From Parcubacteria group bacterium GW2011_GWA2_43_11 (GTDB taxonomy: Bacteria > Patescibacteriota > Minisyncoccia > Phycocordibacterales > UBA12088): a DNA stretch of 64,000 bases. Within the stretch, counting starts at the first letter, position 1, and each line of letters begins with the position of its first letter. The stretch is from the NCBI GenBank assembly GCA_000998805.1, contig LCFC01000004.1:2446-66445 (forward strand). The letters run 5' to 3'. Positions 4,543 through 51,530 of this stretch are shown here, piece after piece. Below the pieces are notes generated by a model, which saw only the letters and a list, made by a program, of their open reading frames with translations, had not been told where the DNA came from and made no database searches. The position numbers were made by a program, and so were the translations under genes.

Positions 4543-6327
4543 TTAGTCGCTGATAACGCGCAGTACTTCTTCTATAGTAGTGCCTCCTTGGACTGCTTTA
4601 AAGAATCCATCTTCAGCCATGGTGAGCATACCCTCAGAGCGTGCTTGTGCTTCTATTTTGTCGCTTGATGCCTGTTTGATGATGAGCTCGTTGATAGCAG
4701 ATGAAACCATCAGTACTTCGTTGATAACCATGCGACCTTTGTATCCATCAGGAGCTTCATCACTTGGAAGTGGTTTTGAAAATACCAAATCTTCAATTCC
4801 ATCCGTTTCTTTAATAACATGTTCATCACGAAGTGTTGTAAGTAATTTTTCAAAATCAATAACTTTTTTGAGCGAAACAATTTCTTCTTTTGAAAGTTTG
4901 TAAGATTCTTTTTGCCCATAAAGTCTTCGTACTAGTCGCTGTCCAATAATGACGCGGATAGTGCTTGAAAGTAAGAAAGGTTCAACCCCCATGTCCATAA
5001 GGCGAGGAATAGCTCCCGCGGCACTGTTGGTGTGTAACGTGGAAAGTACTAAGTGTCCCGTGAGAGATGCGTTCACTGCGAGAGATGCGGTCTCACTATC
5101 GCGAATTTCTCCTACCATGATAATGTCAGGGTCTTGGCGCACGAGAGCACGGAGACCCCGGGCAAAGGTAAAATCAATTTCCGGACGAACTTGTGTTTGG
5201 TTGATGCGTGCCATCTGGTACTCGATAGGATCTTCAATGGTAGAAATATTTACATCGGGAATATTTAAGAGATCGAGTATTGTATACAGTGTTGTAGTTT
5301 TTCCAGAACCTGTTGGCCCAGAGGTAAGAATCATACCGGTTGTTTGTTTCATGGCATGATGCAAACGTTCCAGTCCTTCACCATGGAAACCAAGTCCTTC
5401 TAAAGAATAGCCTCCGCCATTTTCTCGAAGGAGACGCATAACGGTTTTTTCTCCGTAGTACGTAGGAAGGAGTGAGACACGAAAGGATACTTTTTCGTTA
5501 TCGACTGCCATTTTGAAGCGACCGTCCTGTGGTAAGCGTTTTTCATCAAGTTTTAGGTTGGAAAGAACTTTGATTCTTGCAGTGATAGAAGCTGCGGTGT
5601 TTTTGGGCAAGGTCATAGCATCATGTAATAAGCCGTCTATCCTATACCGGACTAGAACTTCGTTTTCCATGGGCTCAATGTGGATATCTGATGCATTTTG
5701 AATGATGGCGTGTTTGAGAAGTGCGTTGACTACGCGAACAACAGGTACATCCTCTGCCAATTTCTTTAAGTCAGACTCAGAAACACCATCTTCTTCCTCA
5801 GAGAGTATGCTAATAGAGGCACTCTCGCGCTTGATAAGGTCACCAAATTCGTCTTTGAGTGTTTTTTGATATTGCAGTAGAGCATGTTTGATACTTTCTG
5901 CGTCGGTGAGACGAGGTAGGATTTTTAAGCCGACCTTCTTTTTAATAAATTCAATCGCTTGGAGGTCCTCAACATCAAGCATTGCCACCTCAAGCTCTCG
6001 GTCACTTTTCTTAAAGGCGATAATGTTGTGTGTACGTGCAATCGGTTCTGGAATCATGGAAAGCACTTCAAAGCCGATTTTTTCGTTGGCGAGATTAATG
6101 AACGGGACACCAAGGACGTATGCATGCATACGTCGTAAATCATCTTCGGATATATTGCCTTTTGAAACGAGAATTTCTTCGGGTGTGGTTTTTTTCTCCT
6201 CAGCTTCTTTTTCCGCATTGGTGTAGACAGCGCGTGACACGAGACCCGAGTCAAGAATGAAGTTCTTTAGTTGTGAACTTGATGTTTTCACAAAGTACCA
6301 GCGTTCAGGTAGCACACAGCTCCCCAA
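4543..6327 (-). CDS. pilB: Type IV pilus assembly ATPase PilB (GspE family)
   Basis: 594 aa with an N-terminal GSPII_E_N-like domain, Walker A TSGPTGSGKTTTLY, Asp/His boxes, and a tetracysteine-free C-terminus. The track start is TTG. Confidence 0.85.
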   Translation of the reverse strand: MGSCVLPERWYFVKTSSSQLKNFILDSGLVSRAVYTNAEKEAEEKKTTPEEILVSKGNISEDDLRRMHAYVLGVPFINLANEKIGFEVLSMIPEPIARTHNIIAFKKSDRELEVAMLDVEDLQAIEFIKKKVGLKILPRLTDAESIKHALLQYQKTLKDEFGDLIKRESASISILSEEEDGVSESDLKKLAEDVPVVRVVNALLKHAIIQNASDIHIEPMENEVLVRYRIDGLLHDAMTLPKNTAASITARIKVLSNLKLDEKRLPQDGRFKMAVDNEKVSFRVSLLPTYYGEKTVMRLLRENGGGYSLEGLGFHGEGLERLHHAMKQTTGMILTSGPTGSGKTTTLYTILDLLNIPDVNISTIEDPIEYQMARINQTQVRPEIDFTFARGLRALVRQDPDIIMVGEIRDSETASLAVNASLTGHLVLSTLHTNSAAGAIPRLMDMGVEPFLLSSTIRVIIGQRLVRRLYGQKESYKLSKEEIVSLKKVIDFEKLLTTLRDEHVIKETDGIEDLVFSKPLPSDEAPDGYKGRMVINEVLMVSSAINELIIKQASSDKIEAQARSEGMLTMAEDGFFKAVQGGTTIEEVLRVISD

Positions 6328-45765: not shown

Positions 45766-46557
45766 ATGCTCGAACTAAAAAATATTTGTGTAGAGATTTC
45801 CTCGGATGCAGTTTCGAAAGAAAACGAGGGGAAAAACGTCGTACGGGATACGTCCTTGTGTATAGAAAGTGGTAGTGTCTCGGTACTTATGGGACCTAAC
45901 GGCTCTGGAAAGAGTACCCTCGTCAACGCACTGCTGGGGCATCCAAGCTATCGTGTATCGTCTGGAATACTTGAACTAGATGGTGTCGATATAACCAATC
46001 TTCCTACGGAAAAGAAAGCACATCTGGGTATTTTTCTCTCCATGCAGAATGTGCCAAAAGTTGGAGGATTAACCCTTGCGACGTTTCTCCATAAGGCGTA
46101 TGTCGCTACGCATCAGACTGATATATCGGTACTTGAGTTCTATGTGAACTTACGGGACAAAGCTAAGCTATTTTCAATCAATCCTGATTTACTTGATCGT
46201 CCATTAACAGCAGGACTTTCCGGTGGTGAAAAAAAACTTTCTGAAGTGTTACAGCTTGCCGCACTGCAACCCAAATACGCCATTCTTGATGAGATAGACT
46301 CCGGGGTAGATATAGATGCGCTCCATACTGTCTTTAAAGCTATTGACGCACTCAAGAAGGAGGGCACCGGCTTCCTCATTATCAGTCACCACCCGTCACT
46401 TCTTGACCACCTTGCACCAGAACATGTGTACGTGATGAGTGGGGGGAATATGGTTCGTAAAGGGGGAAGAGAACTCGCGGAGGAAATAATCAAACATGGC
46501 TTTTGTGACGTGATTCAATGTAGTCTCTCAGACACCTGTAGTGGGAAATGTGGATAG
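45766..46557 (+). CDS. sufC: Fe-S cluster assembly ATPase SufC
   Basis: Walker A GPNGSGKST, ABC signature LSGGEKK, Walker B ILDEIDSG. The ORF is open from a TTG at 45757. Confidence 0.9.
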   Translation: MLELKNICVEISSDAVSKENEGKNVVRDTSLCIESGSVSVLMGPNGSGKSTLVNALLGHPSYRVSSGILELDGVDITNLPTEKKAHLGIFLSMQNVPKVGGLTLATFLHKAYVATHQTDISVLEFYVNLRDKAKLFSINPDLLDRPLTAGLSGGEKKLSEVLQLAALQPKYAILDEIDSGVDIDALHTVFKAIDALKKEGTGFLIISHHPSLLDHLAPEHVYVMSGGNMVRKGGRELAEEIIKHGFCDVIQCSLSDTCSGKCG

Positions 46558-46737
46558 GAGAGTTAGTGTGCGGCCTGCCCTGTACCGAGCTTACCCCGTA
46601 TTTCCTGTGTATAGTGTTTGGGTACAATACTTTCTGAAAAAAATAAAGGTTTTATTGCGTTACGTAGCAAAAAAACCTTTTAAGTTTTGTTTACGTAATA
46701 AATACATAAAAACAATAAAATACGCTATTTTTCGCAG

Positions 46738-46905
46738 GGTTGACCCGGTAGTGAAAATTGACGATGCATTTCATGCGCTACATCTAGAGGATTTAGCCTC
46801 GTCAATTTCTACTACCGGGTTGACCCTGTAGTAGAAGTTTACGATGCATTTCATGCGCTCAACCCTTGGTTTGAGCCTCGTAAACTTTCACTACAGGGTT
46901 GACTT
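46738..46905. repeat. Two tandem approximately 70-nt hairpin units (arms GGTAGTGAAAATTGACGA / TCGTCAATTTCTACTACC), each followed by GGGTTGAC
   Basis: Unit 1 at 46747–46816, unit 2 at 46826–46896; a third copy is at 50560–50628. Confidence 0.7.
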
Positions 46906-47247
46906 CGGTGTGACTTGCGGTAGTATTCCTTTACCGCATCTGCGCGTATTTTTTTCTGTGATATGCGGAGGCTCTTTGTATGTCTCCAATGCCTGAGAAA
47001 GGTATACGTAATGAGGTTTTATTAAATGTTGTTAGAGCTGGCATAAATTCGTTTCTGGGTTTGTAAAAACGAAAATAAGAAAATTTGGAGCATACCGTAG
47101 TTTTGTTTTCAAAAATTTATTTTCCTCTTGCTTTCACAGTAACGTTCGTGTCTGACTTATAACAATTCAGAGCACCCTTTCGAAGTTGAGGCCAAGTTCT
47201 CGCGCCTTCACCTTCGCAAGGAAGCTCAACACTTAACATTAAGTATT

Positions 47248-48456
47248 ATGGCAGCAGAAGCTTTTGATAGGTCAAAGCCCCATGTAAACGTTGGTACAAT
47301 AGGCCACGTTGACCATGGCAAGACCACTACAACCGCCGCTATTCTTCATGTGCTTGGATCTCTTGCAGTAGATAAGGGATATTCTGCACGTCTTGAGGGC
47401 GTAGACGGTATCGACAACGCTCCAGAAGAACGAGCTCGTGGTATTACTATTGCTCTTCACCACTCTGAGTACGAGACACCAAATCGTCACTATGCGCACG
47501 TAGACGCACCGGGACACGCAGACTACATCAAGAACATGATTACAGGAGCCGCACAGATGGATGCAGCTGTACTCGTGGTCGCAGCGACAGACGGTGCTAT
47601 GCCACAGACTCGTGAGCACGTACTTTTGGCTCGCCAAGTTGGTGTGCCTCAGATAGTTGTGTTTATGAACAAGTGTGACATGGTAGACGACGCGGACATG
47701 CTTGATCTTGTTGAAGAAGAACTTCGTGATCTTCTCACTGCAAACGGATTTGATGGTAAGAATGCTCCTGTAATTCGTGGCTCAGGACTTAAGGCTCTTG
47801 AAGCTACGTCAATGGATGACGAATGGGCAAAGAAGATTCTTGAACTTGCTGATGTCTTGGATTCCTATGTGGCAGTTCCAAAGCGAGAGATAGACAAACC
47901 TTTCCTTATGCCTATTGAGGACATTTTCTCTATTGAAGGTCGTGGTACCGTGGTGACTGGTCGTATTGAACGAGGAGTTATCAAGATTGGAGAGGAAGTT
48001 GATATCGTTGGAATTACGCCAACGAGCAAGACCACTATCACCGGTATCGAAATGTTTAACAAGCAACTTCAGGAAGGTCAGGCTGGAGACAATGCTGGTA
48101 TTCTTCTACGTGGTACAAAGAAAGATGATGTGCATCGTGGACAGGTGCTTGCAAAGACTGGGACAGTTACTCCTCACACTGACTTTGAGGCAGAAGTACT
48201 CATTCTTAAGAAAGAGGAGGGGGGACGACACACTCCATTCTTCAGTGGATACAAACCACAGTTTTATGTACGTACTACGGACGTAACAGGTGAAGTAACC
48301 CTAGCGGAAGGAGTAGAAATGGTGATGCCAGGTGACACGGTAACCTTTAAGGTTAAGCTTGTTGCACCTGTCGCACTAGAAGAGCAACAGCGCTTTGCAA
48401 TCCGTGAAGGAGGCAAGACTGTTGGAGCGGGAGTTGTTACTAAGATCAACGCTTAA
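47248..48456 (+). CDS. tuf: Elongation factor Tu
   Basis: [21 protein letters not shown]; 402 aa. Confidence 0.97.
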
Positions 48457-48486: not shown

Positions 48487-48852
48487 ATGGCAACTAAAAC
48501 CACAAAGAAGGTTTCGAAAAGCTCAAAGATTGCACCGGTGGGTGAGGGTAGTAAACTACGTATCCGCATTCGTGCCTACGAACATAAGATTCTTGATGCA
48601 AGCATTAAGCAGATTATGGACACAGCGCTTCGATACGAAGCAAAAGTGGTTGGTCCTGTACCATTGCCAACGGAAATCAAGAAATACACGGTCAACCGCG
48701 CCACATTCGTTCACAAAGATGCGCGAGAACAATTTGAGATGCGAGTTCATAAGCGTATGATTGACATCTTGAATCCCGATCCGAAAGTAGTTGAAGCTCT
48801 AACAAACCTCTCTCTACCATCTGGCGTCAATATTGATGTCAAGATGAGTTAG
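48487..48852 (+). CDS. rpsJ: 30S ribosomal protein S10
   Basis: …KLRIRIRAYEHKILDASIKQIMDTA… The ORF is open from a TTG at 48466. Confidence 0.9.
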   Translation: MATKTTKKVSKSSKIAPVGEGSKLRIRIRAYEHKILDASIKQIMDTALRYEAKVVGPVPLPTEIKKYTVNRATFVHKDAREQFEMRVHKRMIDILNPDPKVVEALTNLSLPSGVNIDVKMS

Positions 48853-48863
48853 AAAACGTTAAG

Positions 48864-48897
48864 AAAAAACCGCTCTGAAGAGAGCGGTTTTTTCTTT
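48864..48897 (+). terminator. Rho-independent terminator directly after rpsJ (AAAAAACCGCTCTGAAGAGAGCGGTTTTTTC)
   Basis: Perfect stem plus a T-run, an unusual position inside the S10 operon. Confidence 0.65.
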
Positions 48898-49263
48898 TAG
48901 GTTTTGTTACATGCCGGGAGCAAGGCGGACGGCGCTTAGATAATGTTACTAAAATACCATCATGCTGATGGTATTTTAGTCTACTCTTTCTCGGATACCT
49001 TCGTGAAAGTTAGACCTTGCTCTGTAGTGATACATGTACTAAAAAAACCGCCCAACAGGGCTATTTTTTGTTTATGTAAGTATTACAACTAACGAACGTC
49101 AAAGGGAAAAGAGACTGTTGTTTAAAGAGACTATACAGCCAATTCAACACAATGTTGAATTTGGTGTTGCTCAGTCGTGGATTACCTGCCTGCGTAGACA
49201 GGAATTGCGTTCTTAATGACGCCGACTGAGTTAAAAGTTGTATAAAAATGGTACGGAGGTTTT

Positions 49264-49464
49264 ATGAAAAGAAAAGTGAAGCATATAATACCGTTCGATG
49301 ATGACCTGGTGGAGACAATTCCCGAAGGTCTGGAGTGGGAGATTGTCGGAAACGAGCTTGTAATCAAAGTGCCAAAATACCCTGCTGACGGTGCGTTCGT
49401 ATTCATTGAATGGTGCGCAGAGAAAGGGATTGAACATAAATGGCAAGATGGAAGAAATCTGTAA
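49264..49464 (+). CDS. Small protein, paralog family member A (66 aa); GGAGG Shine-Dalgarno
   Basis: MKRKVKHIIPFDDDLVETIPEGLEWEIVGNELVIKVPKYPADGAFVFIEWCAEKGIE…. Confidence 0.55.
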   Translation: MKRKVKHIIPFDDDLVETIPEGLEWEIVGNELVIKVPKYPADGAFVFIEWCAEKGIEHKWQDGRNL

Positions 49465-49474
49465 TCCCCAGTAG

Positions 49475-49707
49475 CGTAGTTGAGGTGGTGAAATACCAAG
49501 GGATGAATATGTCATTCGTACAAGGGGTGCAAGACGTTTAATAAAAACCCTCCCAAAGGGTTTAAATGGACGGGTTGAGAAAAGACAAATTCTGGAACAA
49601 TTTGTTTTACTTGTGCAAGTTCCAGCAAGTCCCCATGTTCTTTTTACAAAGTTCACAGAATGGTGCAGGAGAAATGATATAAATATGGAACAGTTGGTTG
49701 TTCAGTA
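49475..49707 (+). pseudogene. Degenerate paralog B of the same small-protein family with no canonical start codon
   Basis: In-frame translation …TLPKGLNGRVEKRQILEQFVLLVQVPASPHVLFTKFTEWCRRNDINMEQ aligns with A and C. Confidence 0.35.
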
Positions 49708-49755
49708 ACCTTGAGCCAATAATGTGGCACTAAACTCTTTCAAAGGAATAAAAAT

Positions 49756-49785
49756 AAGGCCAGAGACAAGCATTGTCCTGGCCTT
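49756..49785 (+). terminator. Conserved hairpin AAGGCCAGAGACAAGCATTGTCCTGGCCTT (family shared with 50268)
   Basis: Same stem sequence as the hairpin at 50268–50299. Confidence 0.5.
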
Positions 49786-49895
49786 CTGAGTAGTCCACCA
49801 ACGTGAACAGATTACCATTTGACTCTCTCTACATTCGGAGTACCATGAAAATTAGAGGAAATTAAGATGAAAATTCACCAAATAAGGAGAAAGTT

Positions 49896-50180
49896 ATGTG
49901 TGGAAAATGCGAAAATTGTGGCTATATTCCCTCAAAAAAAGAAGAATGGAATGAATTCAGAATCATAAGTGACGACCCTACCATTTTGGCAGGGACCCTC
50001 CCTCCGTATAATCCAGTAAGGTTGACTCTGAGAGGTGTTGTTAAGAACGGAGTGTTGGTGATTCGAGTCCCACCCAATGCTGAGCGGCCCGAGTATGATG
50101 CTTTCATGACTTGGTGTAAACAACAGAACATTGTCTTGTCAGGCTTTACTGGGGTAGTTCGCGAAACTCAAGCTGCGTAA
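49896..50180 (+). CDS. Small protein, paralog family member C (94 aa, Cys-rich N-terminus CGKCENCGY); AAGGAG Shine-Dalgarno
   Basis: …TLPPYNPVRLTLRGVVKNGVLVIRVPPNAERPEYDAFMTWCKQQNIV…. Confidence 0.55.
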   Translation: MCGKCENCGYIPSKKEEWNEFRIISDDPTILAGTLPPYNPVRLTLRGVVKNGVLVIRVPPNAERPEYDAFMTWCKQQNIVLSGFTGVVRETQAA

Positions 50181-50267
50181 TAGGCTGCGAATACGTATGA
50201 ACGACGAAAAGAAATAGGCCGGTAGATACAATCTATCGGCCTTGAAATGTGCTTGCGTAAAAAAGTG

Positions 50268-50299
50268 AAGGCCAGGGACAAAATAACGTCCCTGGCCTT
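50268..50299 (+). terminator. Conserved hairpin GAAGGCCAGGGACAAAATAACGTCCCTGGCCTT
   Basis: An 11-bp stem, paralogous to the hairpin at 49756. Confidence 0.5.
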
Positions 50300-50559
50300 T
50301 AACGAATTGCTGAAGTGAAGTGCGTCAGATTATCTTCTATCCACCTAACACAGTTTTTCCCTAAGGTGATAGGGTGGTCTGGCATACTCAGACGTTCAGT
50401 GTTTGATAAAAAATCGAGGCCAACAACCTTCGCTTTCGCTACTAGCAGCCTCCTTCTCTGATTCGCGGGCACCCACTTCAGCAATATGAAGTACATGTTT
50501 GTTACTAAACCTAGAGTATCAGAACATTTTTGTAAGTCAATTTATTGGTGTGTCATACC

Positions 50560-50628
50560 CAGTAGTGAAAATTGACGAAGCTCGACCTGTGGTCGAGCGC
50601 ACAAAGTGCATCGTCAATTTCTACTACG
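50560..50628. repeat. Third copy of the approximately 70-nt hairpin repeat (AGTAGTGAAAATTGACGA…TCGTCAATTTCTACTAC) with a different internal loop
   Basis: Arms identical to the units at 46747 and 46826; the loop has its own sub-hairpin CTCGACCTGTGGTCGAG. Confidence 0.7.
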
Positions 50629-50879
50629 GGGTTGCATTTTTTAACCCATTCCTGTATAGTACCGAGGCTAATAGAAGTATCGTAAGGTACTAGCCATGTT
50701 CCACCGACAGCAATGATAGGGAACCTCTGGACCGTAAGCCTCACTGGCTAGTGGTTCAGTGTAGGCCTTTTTTGTTAGCAAGGTCTTTAAAAACAGCGCA
50801 CTTCATCGTTGTGCTGCACAAAATACTTCTCATCGTATAATTTAATACGACTCGCAGTATTTTGTTTGCACGCCTCGAA

Positions 50880-50907
50880 TTGCATCTGTTTTTATACGCC
50901 CTACAGT
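50880..50907 (+). promoter_or_regulatory. Candidate sigma70-type promoter for rplC (TTGCAT-16-TACAGT)
   Basis: Hexamers visible directly. Confidence 0.35.
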
Positions 50908-50921
50908 TTTTGGTTTCAAAA

Positions 50922-51530
50922 ATGAAATTTATACTCGCTACAAAAGAATACATGACACAGATCTTCGATGAAGAAGGTCGTGTGCATCCTGCTACTGTAC
51001 TCAACGCAGGGCCAAATACCGTCACACAGGTCAAGACTGAGGAAAAAGATGGCTACAACGCTGTACAGGTGGCATTTGGAGAACGCAAGGAAGGCCGAGT
51101 AAACAAAGCACAACGACCAAAGGGTCTTTTCCGCTATTTCCGTGAGTATCGATCAAAGAACATTGAAGATATGGCTGTCACAGAAGGTGCAGTTATCAAT
51201 GTCGATGATGCATTTGCTGTGGGTGACAAGATAATGGTTTCCGGCATTGCCAAGGCAAAGGGTCATCAAGGAGTTATAAAGCGCCACCATTTTGCAGGAG
51301 GACCTCGCACCCATGGACAAAAGCACAACGAACGATCTCCTGGTTCTATTGGAGGAGGTCTACGAAGTCGTGTCCCAAAGGGTATGAAAATGGGAGGACG
51401 AACGGGAGGACGACTTGTGTCTGTGAAGAACCTTACAGTGGTGGGTATCAATAAAGAAAAAAATCAGCTCATTGTCGAAGGAGCTATTCCTGGAAGAACG
51501 GGCACCCTTATCGAGGTTCGAGGCTTGTAA
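50922..51530 (+). CDS. rplC: 50S ribosomal protein L3
   Basis: MKFILATKEYMTQIFDEEG…. Confidence 0.9.
   Translation: MKFILATKEYMTQIFDEEGRVHPATVLNAGPNTVTQVKTEEKDGYNAVQVAFGERKEGRVNKAQRPKGLFRYFREYRSKNIEDMAVTEGAVINVDDAFAVGDKIMVSGIAKAKGHQGVIKRHHFAGGPRTHGQKHNERSPGSIGGGLRSRVPKGMKMGGRTGGRLVSVKNLTVVGINKEKNQLIVEGAIPGRTGTLIEVRGL

Follow-up and report, generated by a model that had tools for sequence, protein, structure and literature searches.

Small genes of narrow distribution are known from several settings: lineage-specific ORFan families occupy variable islets, type II toxin-antitoxin modules consist of small adjacent genes in a bicistronic operon, and class III and IV polyhydroxyalkanoate (PHA) synthases require small partner subunits. 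Genomes of the candidate phyla radiation (CPR) hold many uncharacterised, clade-restricted families of small proteins, and one more is described here from a 64-kb stretch of a contig of Parcubacteria group bacterium GW2011_GWA2_43_11 (this whole stretch is called the window below), in which three small genes, named A, B and C, lie between the ribosomal protein genes rpsJ (S10) and rplC (L3). With a probability of roughly 55% we regard them as an islet of three ancient orphan paralogs, the products of which would serve as accessory, non-enzymatic binding or regulatory factors and would be neither constituents of the ribosome nor a toxin-antitoxin system.

An earlier note, made from the letters of this DNA alone, had pointed to three tandem copies of a small-protein family in the gap of the S10 operon, each followed by a conserved hairpin, and had offered a toxin/antitoxin-like or a ribosome-associated role as speculation. 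Its description of the genes was largely confirmed, whereas its assignment of the hairpins and both proposed roles had to be revised.

Results

Three homologous genes between rpsJ and rplC

The order in the window is tuf (47248-48456), rpsJ, a stretch of 2.07 kb, rplC (50922-51530), rplD and the remaining cluster, and the trio was found in this stretch as reported. Its GC content is 0.37-0.46, similar to that of the flanks. Open reading frames (ORFs) A and C and their ribosome-binding sites were present as first described, the latter frame with an N-terminal CxxCxxC (MCGKCENC). Homology of the three copies was borne out by pairwise BLASTP (A/B E = 3e-6, B/C 9e-6, A/C 2e-3) and by the common core TLPxGL...LxVxVP...FxxWC. 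Since the paralogs are 26-29% identical to each other, the duplication is ancient. In a neighbour-joining tree A, B and C formed three clades, each spanning lineages (A: L008, L014, L015, L102, L106; B: L008, L106, L015; C: L008, L015, L102, L106, P0007; L and P numbers are our labels for related loci and homologs), so that the triplication is older than the divergence of these lineages.

The frame of the middle copy is open from 49484 to 49708 and contains no ATG, GTG or TTG before 49613. Locus tags are found on A and C only and are consecutive (G0051, G0052), so that the NCBI record of this genome seems to have no annotation for B. The lack of a start, already remarked upon in the earlier note, is correct for this record but peculiar to it. 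Exact look-up of protein C led to contigs of other assemblies from the same population. Five of these assemblies cover the junction at 49488|49489, and all of them (L001, L002, L003, L004 and L005) carry 112 extra bases there. On either side of the junction four (L001, L002, L003 and L005) match the window at 99.9-100% identity, and L004 does so at 98.8% upstream and 100% downstream. L006, a cut contig starting inside the block, carries the Shine-Dalgarno (SD) sequence and the GTG start. The block holds the terminator of A (GGTGGCCATTCTGAATGGCCACC followed by T6), a promoter-like TTGACG-16-TACTAT, the SD AAGGAGG and the GTG start of B, and with the block restored B is an intact ORF of 75 aa. 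This module of A terminator, B promoter and SD is kept in L008, L106 and L015, where substitutions in the stem of the terminator are compensated. In L001 the hairpin of A scores as a terminator, with a GC-rich stem and a U-run on the plus strand. Only 2 nt of microhomology flank the break, and exact look-up of the 33-aa ORF that spans the short junction retrieved no record of it. Judging from these alignments, the missing 112 nt represent either a real deletion in the strain or a misassembly, confined to this record, in which B is probably silenced. That a gap of 112 nt deprives a deposited genome of one gene start should be borne in mind in annotation.

Range of the family and order of the genes

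An exhaustive search of 1.84 billion representatives with a profile of the three copies gave 16 hits, three of them spurious and about 12 of them genuine small homologs of 65-94 aa with the same motif, the exception in length being a 126-aa gene call that encloses a 75-aa B. The spurious hits were repeat matches (P0004, a eukaryotic receptor phosphatase; P0010 and P0015, with WCK.NN..L repeats), and a link to Sp-DndD was discarded, as it was a weak match of P0010 only and not of the family itself. Word-indexed protein searches did not reach beyond this clade, whether a single sequence or a profile built from 14 or 21 sequences was used; a metagenome scan added one new lineage, L106, and viral contigs yielded no relative of B. 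With S10 as bait, the S10 region of 80 species representatives (S10 identity >=66%) was scanned in six frames with a hidden Markov model, and the family was present in one of the 80 (L017).

The full arrangement S10-A-B-DUF3141-C-L3 was found in L008/L017 (GW2011_GWD2_42_14) and L106. Other lineages show S10-A-B-DUF3141-C (L015), S10-A-C-DUF3141 (L102), S10-A-L3 (L014), S10 followed by a B-like gene (L097, L100) or DUF3141-C (L109), and the copy number of the family thus ranges from 1 to 3. Members lie directly 3' of rpsJ in the window, L008/L017, L014, L015, L097, L100, L102 and L106. The search for homologs beside ribosomal genes in other CPR genomes, proposed in the earlier note, thus gave orthologs of each type in at least six related lineages, nearly always immediately 3' of rpsJ, and the opposite outcome, no conservation outside this genome, did not hold. 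Three members occur elsewhere in unrelated contexts (L011, L098, P0013). The contig of P0013 (JGI 3300075153) carries many short genes on the same strand, among them a MerR-DNA methylase, a GIY-YIG protein, a weak LAGLIDADG match, DUF2207 and an M23 peptidase, and could represent a phage or other mobile element from the CPR.

DUF3141, which lies within the islet in L008, L106, L015, L102 and L109, is placed between B and C in L008/L017, L106 and L015, whereas it follows C in L102 and precedes it in L109. It is a PhaC-like alpha/beta hydrolase with a PhaC-type G-x-C-x-G-G box (GNCQGG, read from sequence), and its function is not known (bioRxiv 10.1101/693432). Neither the gene nor a pseudogene remnant was detected in the gap or elsewhere in the window; DUF3141 is a frequent but dispensable neighbour.

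Selection, codon usage and mosaic divergence

Ratios of non-synonymous to synonymous substitutions (dN/dS, Nei-Gojobori) were 0.32 for A against L008, 0.36-0.62 for B and 0.20-0.27 for C, compared with 0.01-0.14 for tuf, S10 and L3, and are 5-15 times those of S10 and L3. Values of 0.2-0.4 indicate that A, B and C are protein-coding, and the comparison of orthologs shows them to be under coding constraint. Compared with the core genes, selection on the family is relaxed and its evolution fast. The codon adaptation index (CAI), with the ribosomal proteins of the window as reference, was 0.56-0.59 for the three genes and 0.69-0.80 for ribosomal proteins; among 28 ordinary genes of the window the mean was 0.65 and the minimum 0.588, with the family at or below this minimum. 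Most members are basic (isoelectric point 9-10).

Between L008 and L106, synonymous divergence (dS) amounted to 2.6 in A, 0.16 in B, 0.035 in DUF3141, 0.86 in C and 0.16 in S10, with 0.16-0.37 in flanking core genes. DUF3141 is 98% identical in these two lineages and the neighbouring A, in which dS is saturated, 38%. The mosaic pattern points to recent exchange of some cassettes and to old alleles in others.

Sequence families and predicted fold

As the earlier note had stated, no known family was recognised: Pfam-A, NCBIfam, PHROGs and PADLOC gave no match at E <= 1 apart from noise (zn-ribbon_14, 0.13; HVO_0649, 0.012, in one member), and the best E of a profile search against PDB sequences was 0.35. 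Derivation from S10 (uS10) as a paralog was rejected at an hhalign probability of 2%. Literature searched by the genome name and for rpsJ/rplC in CPR contained nothing relevant.

AlphaFold, run with an alignment of 15 sequences, predicted beta-alpha-beta-beta-alpha-beta-beta for C (mean predicted local distance difference test, pLDDT, 76; predicted template modelling score, pTM, 0.60), with a poorly defined Cys-rich N-terminus, and beta-alpha-beta-beta-alpha for A (pLDDT 81, pTM 0.65). The N-terminal cysteines of C vary from 1 to 5 among members; hence this terminus is not a conserved zinc site. Foldseek comparison of the models with PDB and BFVD revealed no significant structural neighbour, only generic alpha+beta matches. 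The best matches of C were the eukaryotic ribosomal protein chains U and LU, presumably eL22 (E = 0.017-0.3, template modelling score, TM, 0.40-0.47), and an eL22-like fold was rejected at thresholds of TM > 0.5 and E < 1e-3. The ribosomal chains vanished for the model of A, the best matches of which were designed ferredoxin folds (E >= 0.38).

Hairpins, promoters and transcription units

The terminator behind rpsJ is kept at 83-90% in L014, L015 and L106, and would uncouple S10 from all that lies downstream. The core of the motif 5' of A, seen in the window, L106, L008, L015, L014 and L102, is presumed to belong to a promoter or regulatory region of this gene; positions 49037-49268 are 86% identical to L106, while the A proteins are only 34% identical. 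This motif is set apart from the start codon of A by some 120 additional nt, including an inverted repeat (49135-49167), in the window, L106 and L008. Upstream of C the TTGAC, the block ATTCGGAGTACCAT and the SD AAGGAG are invariant in five lineages, the promoter taking the form TTGAC[T/G]-16-TACCAT. Phylogenetic footprinting thus predicts that A, B and C each form a separate monocistronic unit, as it appears from the elements conserved around them.

The two near-identical hairpins of the earlier note, at 49756-49787 and 50268-50299, do have a common arm, AAGGCCAG[A/G]GAC. This pattern matches three times in 64 kb against 0.38 expected (0 of 100 shuffles reached three), and the folding energies are -22 kcal/mol (z = -5.2) and -29 kcal/mol (z = -8.3), respectively. 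The arm AAGGCCAG itself occurs at two sites only in 64 kb and, among 96 loci, only in contigs of this strain, for which reason local duplication or conversion is likely; a dispersed repeat of the repetitive extragenic palindrome or miniature inverted-repeat transposable element type (REP/MITE) was rejected on the same grounds. At the position of hairpin 49756 relatives carry a bidirectional terminator of B, then DUF3141 and its terminator, and the homologous sites in L008 and L015 are canonical bidirectional terminators, from which we infer a terminator-type hairpin of B.

The claim that each copy is followed by a conserved hairpin could not be upheld. The terminator of A lies in the missing block and differs in sequence, and C is followed first by the hairpin at 50216-50242, which is 91% identical in L015, occurs also in L008, L106 and L108 and likely marks the 3' end or terminator of C. 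In hairpin 50268 the U-run is found on the minus strand; this hairpin scores as a canonical intrinsic terminator on that strand only and probably belongs to another, minus-strand unit.

A minus-strand RNA candidate and the leader of rplC

The segment upstream of hairpin 50268 on the minus strand has a promoter-like TTGACT-16-TACTCT (about 50545-50517) and a closing helix (50306-50317/50474-50485), is 72% identical to L015 4884-5096 and folds with z = -5.6; the counterpart of the whole unit in L015 spans 4869-5100. In the positional homolog of the hairpin in L015 four base pairs are changed on both sides and all are compensated, and the G-U pairs of the closing helix, read from the sequence, are compatible with the minus strand only; an overlapping 65-aa ORF on this strand is not conserved in L015. 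Owing to the terminator, the compensated pairs and the G-U pairs, the hairpin is assigned to this unit and not to C, and most likely terminates a separate structured RNA, which is not part of the protein family.

Where the islet ends on the right, a promoter of its own (TTGCAT-17-TATAGT at 50632-50660) precedes rplC, together with a structured leader of some 115 nt terminating in GGCC followed by U6. The leader is 84-92% identical in L008, L106 and L014 and more conserved than the small genes; of 29 pairs predicted by RNAalifold 10 show compensatory changes. A covariance model located it upstream of rplC in eight lineages, with a further weak match in L073; copies include L008 7654-7809, L106 5256-5448 and L014 1489-1773 as well as those of L019, L020, L046 and L108. 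It matched no Rfam family at gathering score or E <= 5 and is a candidate for a new autoregulatory leader or attenuator of ribosomal proteins in Parcubacteria. The leader and the minus-strand RNA probably matter more widely than the proteins do. In L108 (572-857) a gene with a tRNA_bind domain takes the place of rplC behind the leader and some 160 nt of the adjoining downstream sequence, either through a rearrangement or in a chimeric metagenome contig.

The rpsJ-rplC junction in Parcubacteria

Among 72 Parcubacteria species with both genes in order, the gap between rpsJ and rplC is shorter than 60 nt in 22 and longer than 600 nt in 32, the largest gaps reaching 5.8 kb (S10-L3 junctions of L017-L096). 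Large gaps contain unrelated cargo, namely DUF4395, a DDE transposase, reverse transcriptase, class IV aminotransferase and large surface-type proteins. The junction is a general, insertion-tolerant hotspot for cargo in Parcubacteria, and the islet is the version of one clade. A near-universal adjacency is broken here and the site used for cargo, and rplC has acquired a promoter and a conserved structured leader of its own.

Features of the window are compiled in Table 1.

Table 1. Positions of the islet genes, their signals and the bordering elements in the window.
Feature	Position	Strand	Evidence
rpsJ (ribosomal protein S10), left islet border	48487..48852	+	ORF list; Pfam Ribosomal_S10 on identical L001 gene
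Bidirectional intrinsic terminator 3' of rpsJ, strong	48861..48896		Perfect 16-bp stem, T-runs on both strands
Non-coding motif 5' of gene A, ATTATGTAAGTATT...ACGTCAAAGGGAAAAGAG	49069..49115	+	Core shared by six lineages
Gene A, 66 aa, acidic in this genome	49264..49464	+	SD GGAGG 49255-49259; orthologs, dN/dS
Junction with 112 nt missing relative to five other assemblies	49488..49489		Alignment of sibling assemblies
Gene B body, 5'-truncated here, intact 75 aa elsewhere	49489..49708	+	Orthologs in L008, L106, L015
Hairpin 1, 3' of B	49756..49787		A-run upstream; no plus-strand U-run downstream
Promoter of gene C, TTGACT-16-TACCAT	49819..49846	+	Cross-lineage conservation
Gene C, 94 aa, Cys-rich N-terminus, C-terminal extension	49896..50180	+	SD AAGGAG 49884-49889; orthologs
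Hairpin directly 3' of C	50216..50242	+	-18.4 kcal/mol on plus vs -14.8 on minus strand
Candidate structured RNA, ~250 nt	50258..50545	-	Conservation, fold, hairpin 50268 as terminator with U6
Hairpin 2, arms near-identical to hairpin 1	50268..50299	-	13 bp + CACTTTTTTA
rplC promoter and structured leader, right islet border	50632..50775	+	Conservation, RNAalifold, covariance model

Further observations concern non-coding DNA. No transfer RNA (tRNA) gene was detected by ARAGORN in the window, including some 690 nt without a long ORF between an ABC-ATPase gene and tuf (46557-47248), and no Rfam family matched at gathering score, positions 48800-51000 giving sub-threshold noise only. A long imperfect inverted repeat (50557-50632, 25-nt arms, 84% complementary, enclosing two small hairpins) separates the minus-strand RNA candidate from the rplC promoter and is skipped by the homologous matches of L008, L106 and L014. 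The end of the L015 contig (5240-5297), about 500 nt downstream of its gene C, reads TTAGTTGGTGAGGTAACGGCTCACCAAGG, which we take to be a conserved segment of 16S ribosomal RNA (rRNA), so that an rRNA gene or a chimeric join is possible.

Discussion

The observations would fit a small accessory gene islet at the break between the tuf-rpsJ and the rplC-onward transcription units of one narrow Parcubacteria clade, encoding small alpha+beta proteins of the cytoplasm, with a length of about 65 aa in A, 75 aa in B and 85-94 aa in C. Every gene would possess a sigma-70-like promoter, a strong SD and a hairpin terminator and be transcribed as a monocistronic unit. The ancestral order was likely S10-A-B-DUF3141-C-L3; DUF3141 would have been lost in this genome, and the 112-nt deletion or misassembly would also have removed the terminator of A together with promoter, ribosome-binding site and start codon of B. 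Possibly as homo- or hetero-oligomers, the proteins of this variable, recombining module may act on nucleic acid or on a partner protein. With three ancient subtypes, a confidently predicted fold and no relatives, the family is a clean target for work on small proteins of CPR bacteria.

Several points weigh against this reading. A functional homolog of any kind was not found in the searches, and since the structural matches are generic and non-significant (none better than E = 0.017), a binding or regulatory role is a default assumption. The stable stems of hairpins 49756 and 50216 are not followed by a U-run on the plus strand, and promoter-like sites are no more numerous in the region than expected by chance, so that the promoters rest on conservation and not on a scan. 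Furthermore, all S10-linked lineages have S10 proteins of 92-99% identity and are not independent samples. On account of this identity the constant position is most simply inherited, although the steady place next to rpsJ could be functional and not only a matter of clade inheritance.

Such a functional meaning would be expected if the genes encoded clade-specific ribosome- or translation-associated proteins that are kept beside rpsJ for co-regulation with ribosomal genes. Their place directly 3' of rpsJ in at least eight contigs or lineages, the mostly basic products and the ribosomal chains among the non-significant matches of C (E = 0.017-0.3) would agree with this. We nevertheless consider such a role, the ribosome-associated one suggested earlier, improbable in view of the strong terminator after rpsJ and the individual promoters and terminators, a CAI below that of ordinary genes, dN/dS 5-15 times that of S10 and L3, a variable copy number with B deleted in this record without other decay, the failure to find the family in 79 of 80 related species, members away from ribosomal genes (L011, L098, P0013), the missing profile similarity to S10 and the eL22-like matches that vanish for the model of A. 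A bolder version, in which A, B and C would form a hetero-oligomer acting on the translation apparatus of these reduced Parcubacteria, for instance a clade-specific factor that binds ribosome or rRNA and replaces something the CPR ribosome lacks, appears very improbable; if true, it is functional coupling and not inheritance that would keep the genes between rpsJ and the rplC leader. A partnership with the DUF3141 hydrolase, with A, B and C as its accessory subunits, chaperones or regulators, is suggested by the position of DUF3141 among the family genes in most relatives, by its PhaC-type box and by the small subunits that PHA synthases need. It is unlikely, however, as the window (no DUF3141 or remnant in 64 kb) and L014 keep family genes without it, the members in L011, L098 and P0013 occur in unrelated contexts, and DUF3141 has its own terminator, SD and spacing; given its 98% identity between L008 and L106, compared with 38% in A, the two do not co-evolve.

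The fast mosaic evolution would be accounted for if the genes belonged to a conflict system (toxin-antitoxin, immunity, anti-phage or phage-derived anti-defence). The tandem arrangement of small genes in an islet that varies, a dS of A and C far above that of flanking core genes, suggesting exchange of old alleles, and the mobile-element- or phage-like contig of P0013 with its methylase, nucleases (GIY-YIG, LAGLIDADG) and M23 peptidase are in line with it, but A, B and C are mutual homologs and not toxin plus antidote, they form separate transcription units, PADLOC, Pfam and PHROG gave no match, no relative of B was seen on viral contigs, and overall dN/dS is below 1. We hold this explanation to be distinctly unlikely, and the toxin/antitoxin-like role of the earlier note was abandoned in view of the mutual homology and of the conserved terminators and promoters between the genes. 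A single autoregulated bicistronic operon of type II is not supported either: terminator, promoter and SD between A and B as well as promoter and SD before C are kept in 4-5 lineages. Hardly any credence is due to a recent local duplication of non-coding DNA, in which case the ORFs would not be genes. B without a start codon and locus tags on A and C only could be cited for it, but the divergence of the paralogs makes the duplication ancient, in several lineages the frames of all three types have stayed open, with SD sites preserved and dN/dS at 0.2-0.6, and B is intact in sibling assemblies. This possibility, which the earlier note itself had named as fatal to its claim, is already refuted by dN/dS and the subtype tree.

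Among described systems, the rplC leader resembles that of the E. coli S10 operon (L4-mediated attenuation) as a structured 5' leader with hairpin and U-run before an L3-L4-L23-L2 cluster, yet it precedes rplC and not rpsJ and matches no Rfam family. In size (60-95 aa) and predicted beta-alpha-beta-beta-alpha(-beta) order the proteins are similar to ferredoxin-like, two-layer alpha+beta proteins (neighbours: ribosomal chains U/LU, KEOPS Pcc1 and designed ferredoxin folds; best E = 0.017, query-normalised TM <=0.52), but with a root-mean-square deviation of about 5 A in the top-ranked matches and no sequence similarity the resemblance is one of topology only. As with the PhaE/PhaR subunits of PHA synthases, small genes flank a PhaC-like hydrolase in most relatives; unlike these subunits, to which no similarity in sequence or fold was found, the family persists where DUF3141 is absent. 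With type II toxin-antitoxin modules the locus has small adjacent genes in common that vary between strains, whereas its components are homologous, are separated by terminators and promoters and contain no toxin or antitoxin domain that could be found. The locus is also like lineage-specific ORFan families in variable islets between core genes: its range is narrow, presence and copy number vary, divergence is mosaic, codons are poorly adapted, and the junction holds unrelated cargo in sister species. Unlike in such islets, members of the clade have kept the promoters and the sequence of genes A-B-(DUF3141)-C, and neither integrase nor flanking repeats were seen, which argues for an inherited, recombining locus and not for a recently inserted mobile element.

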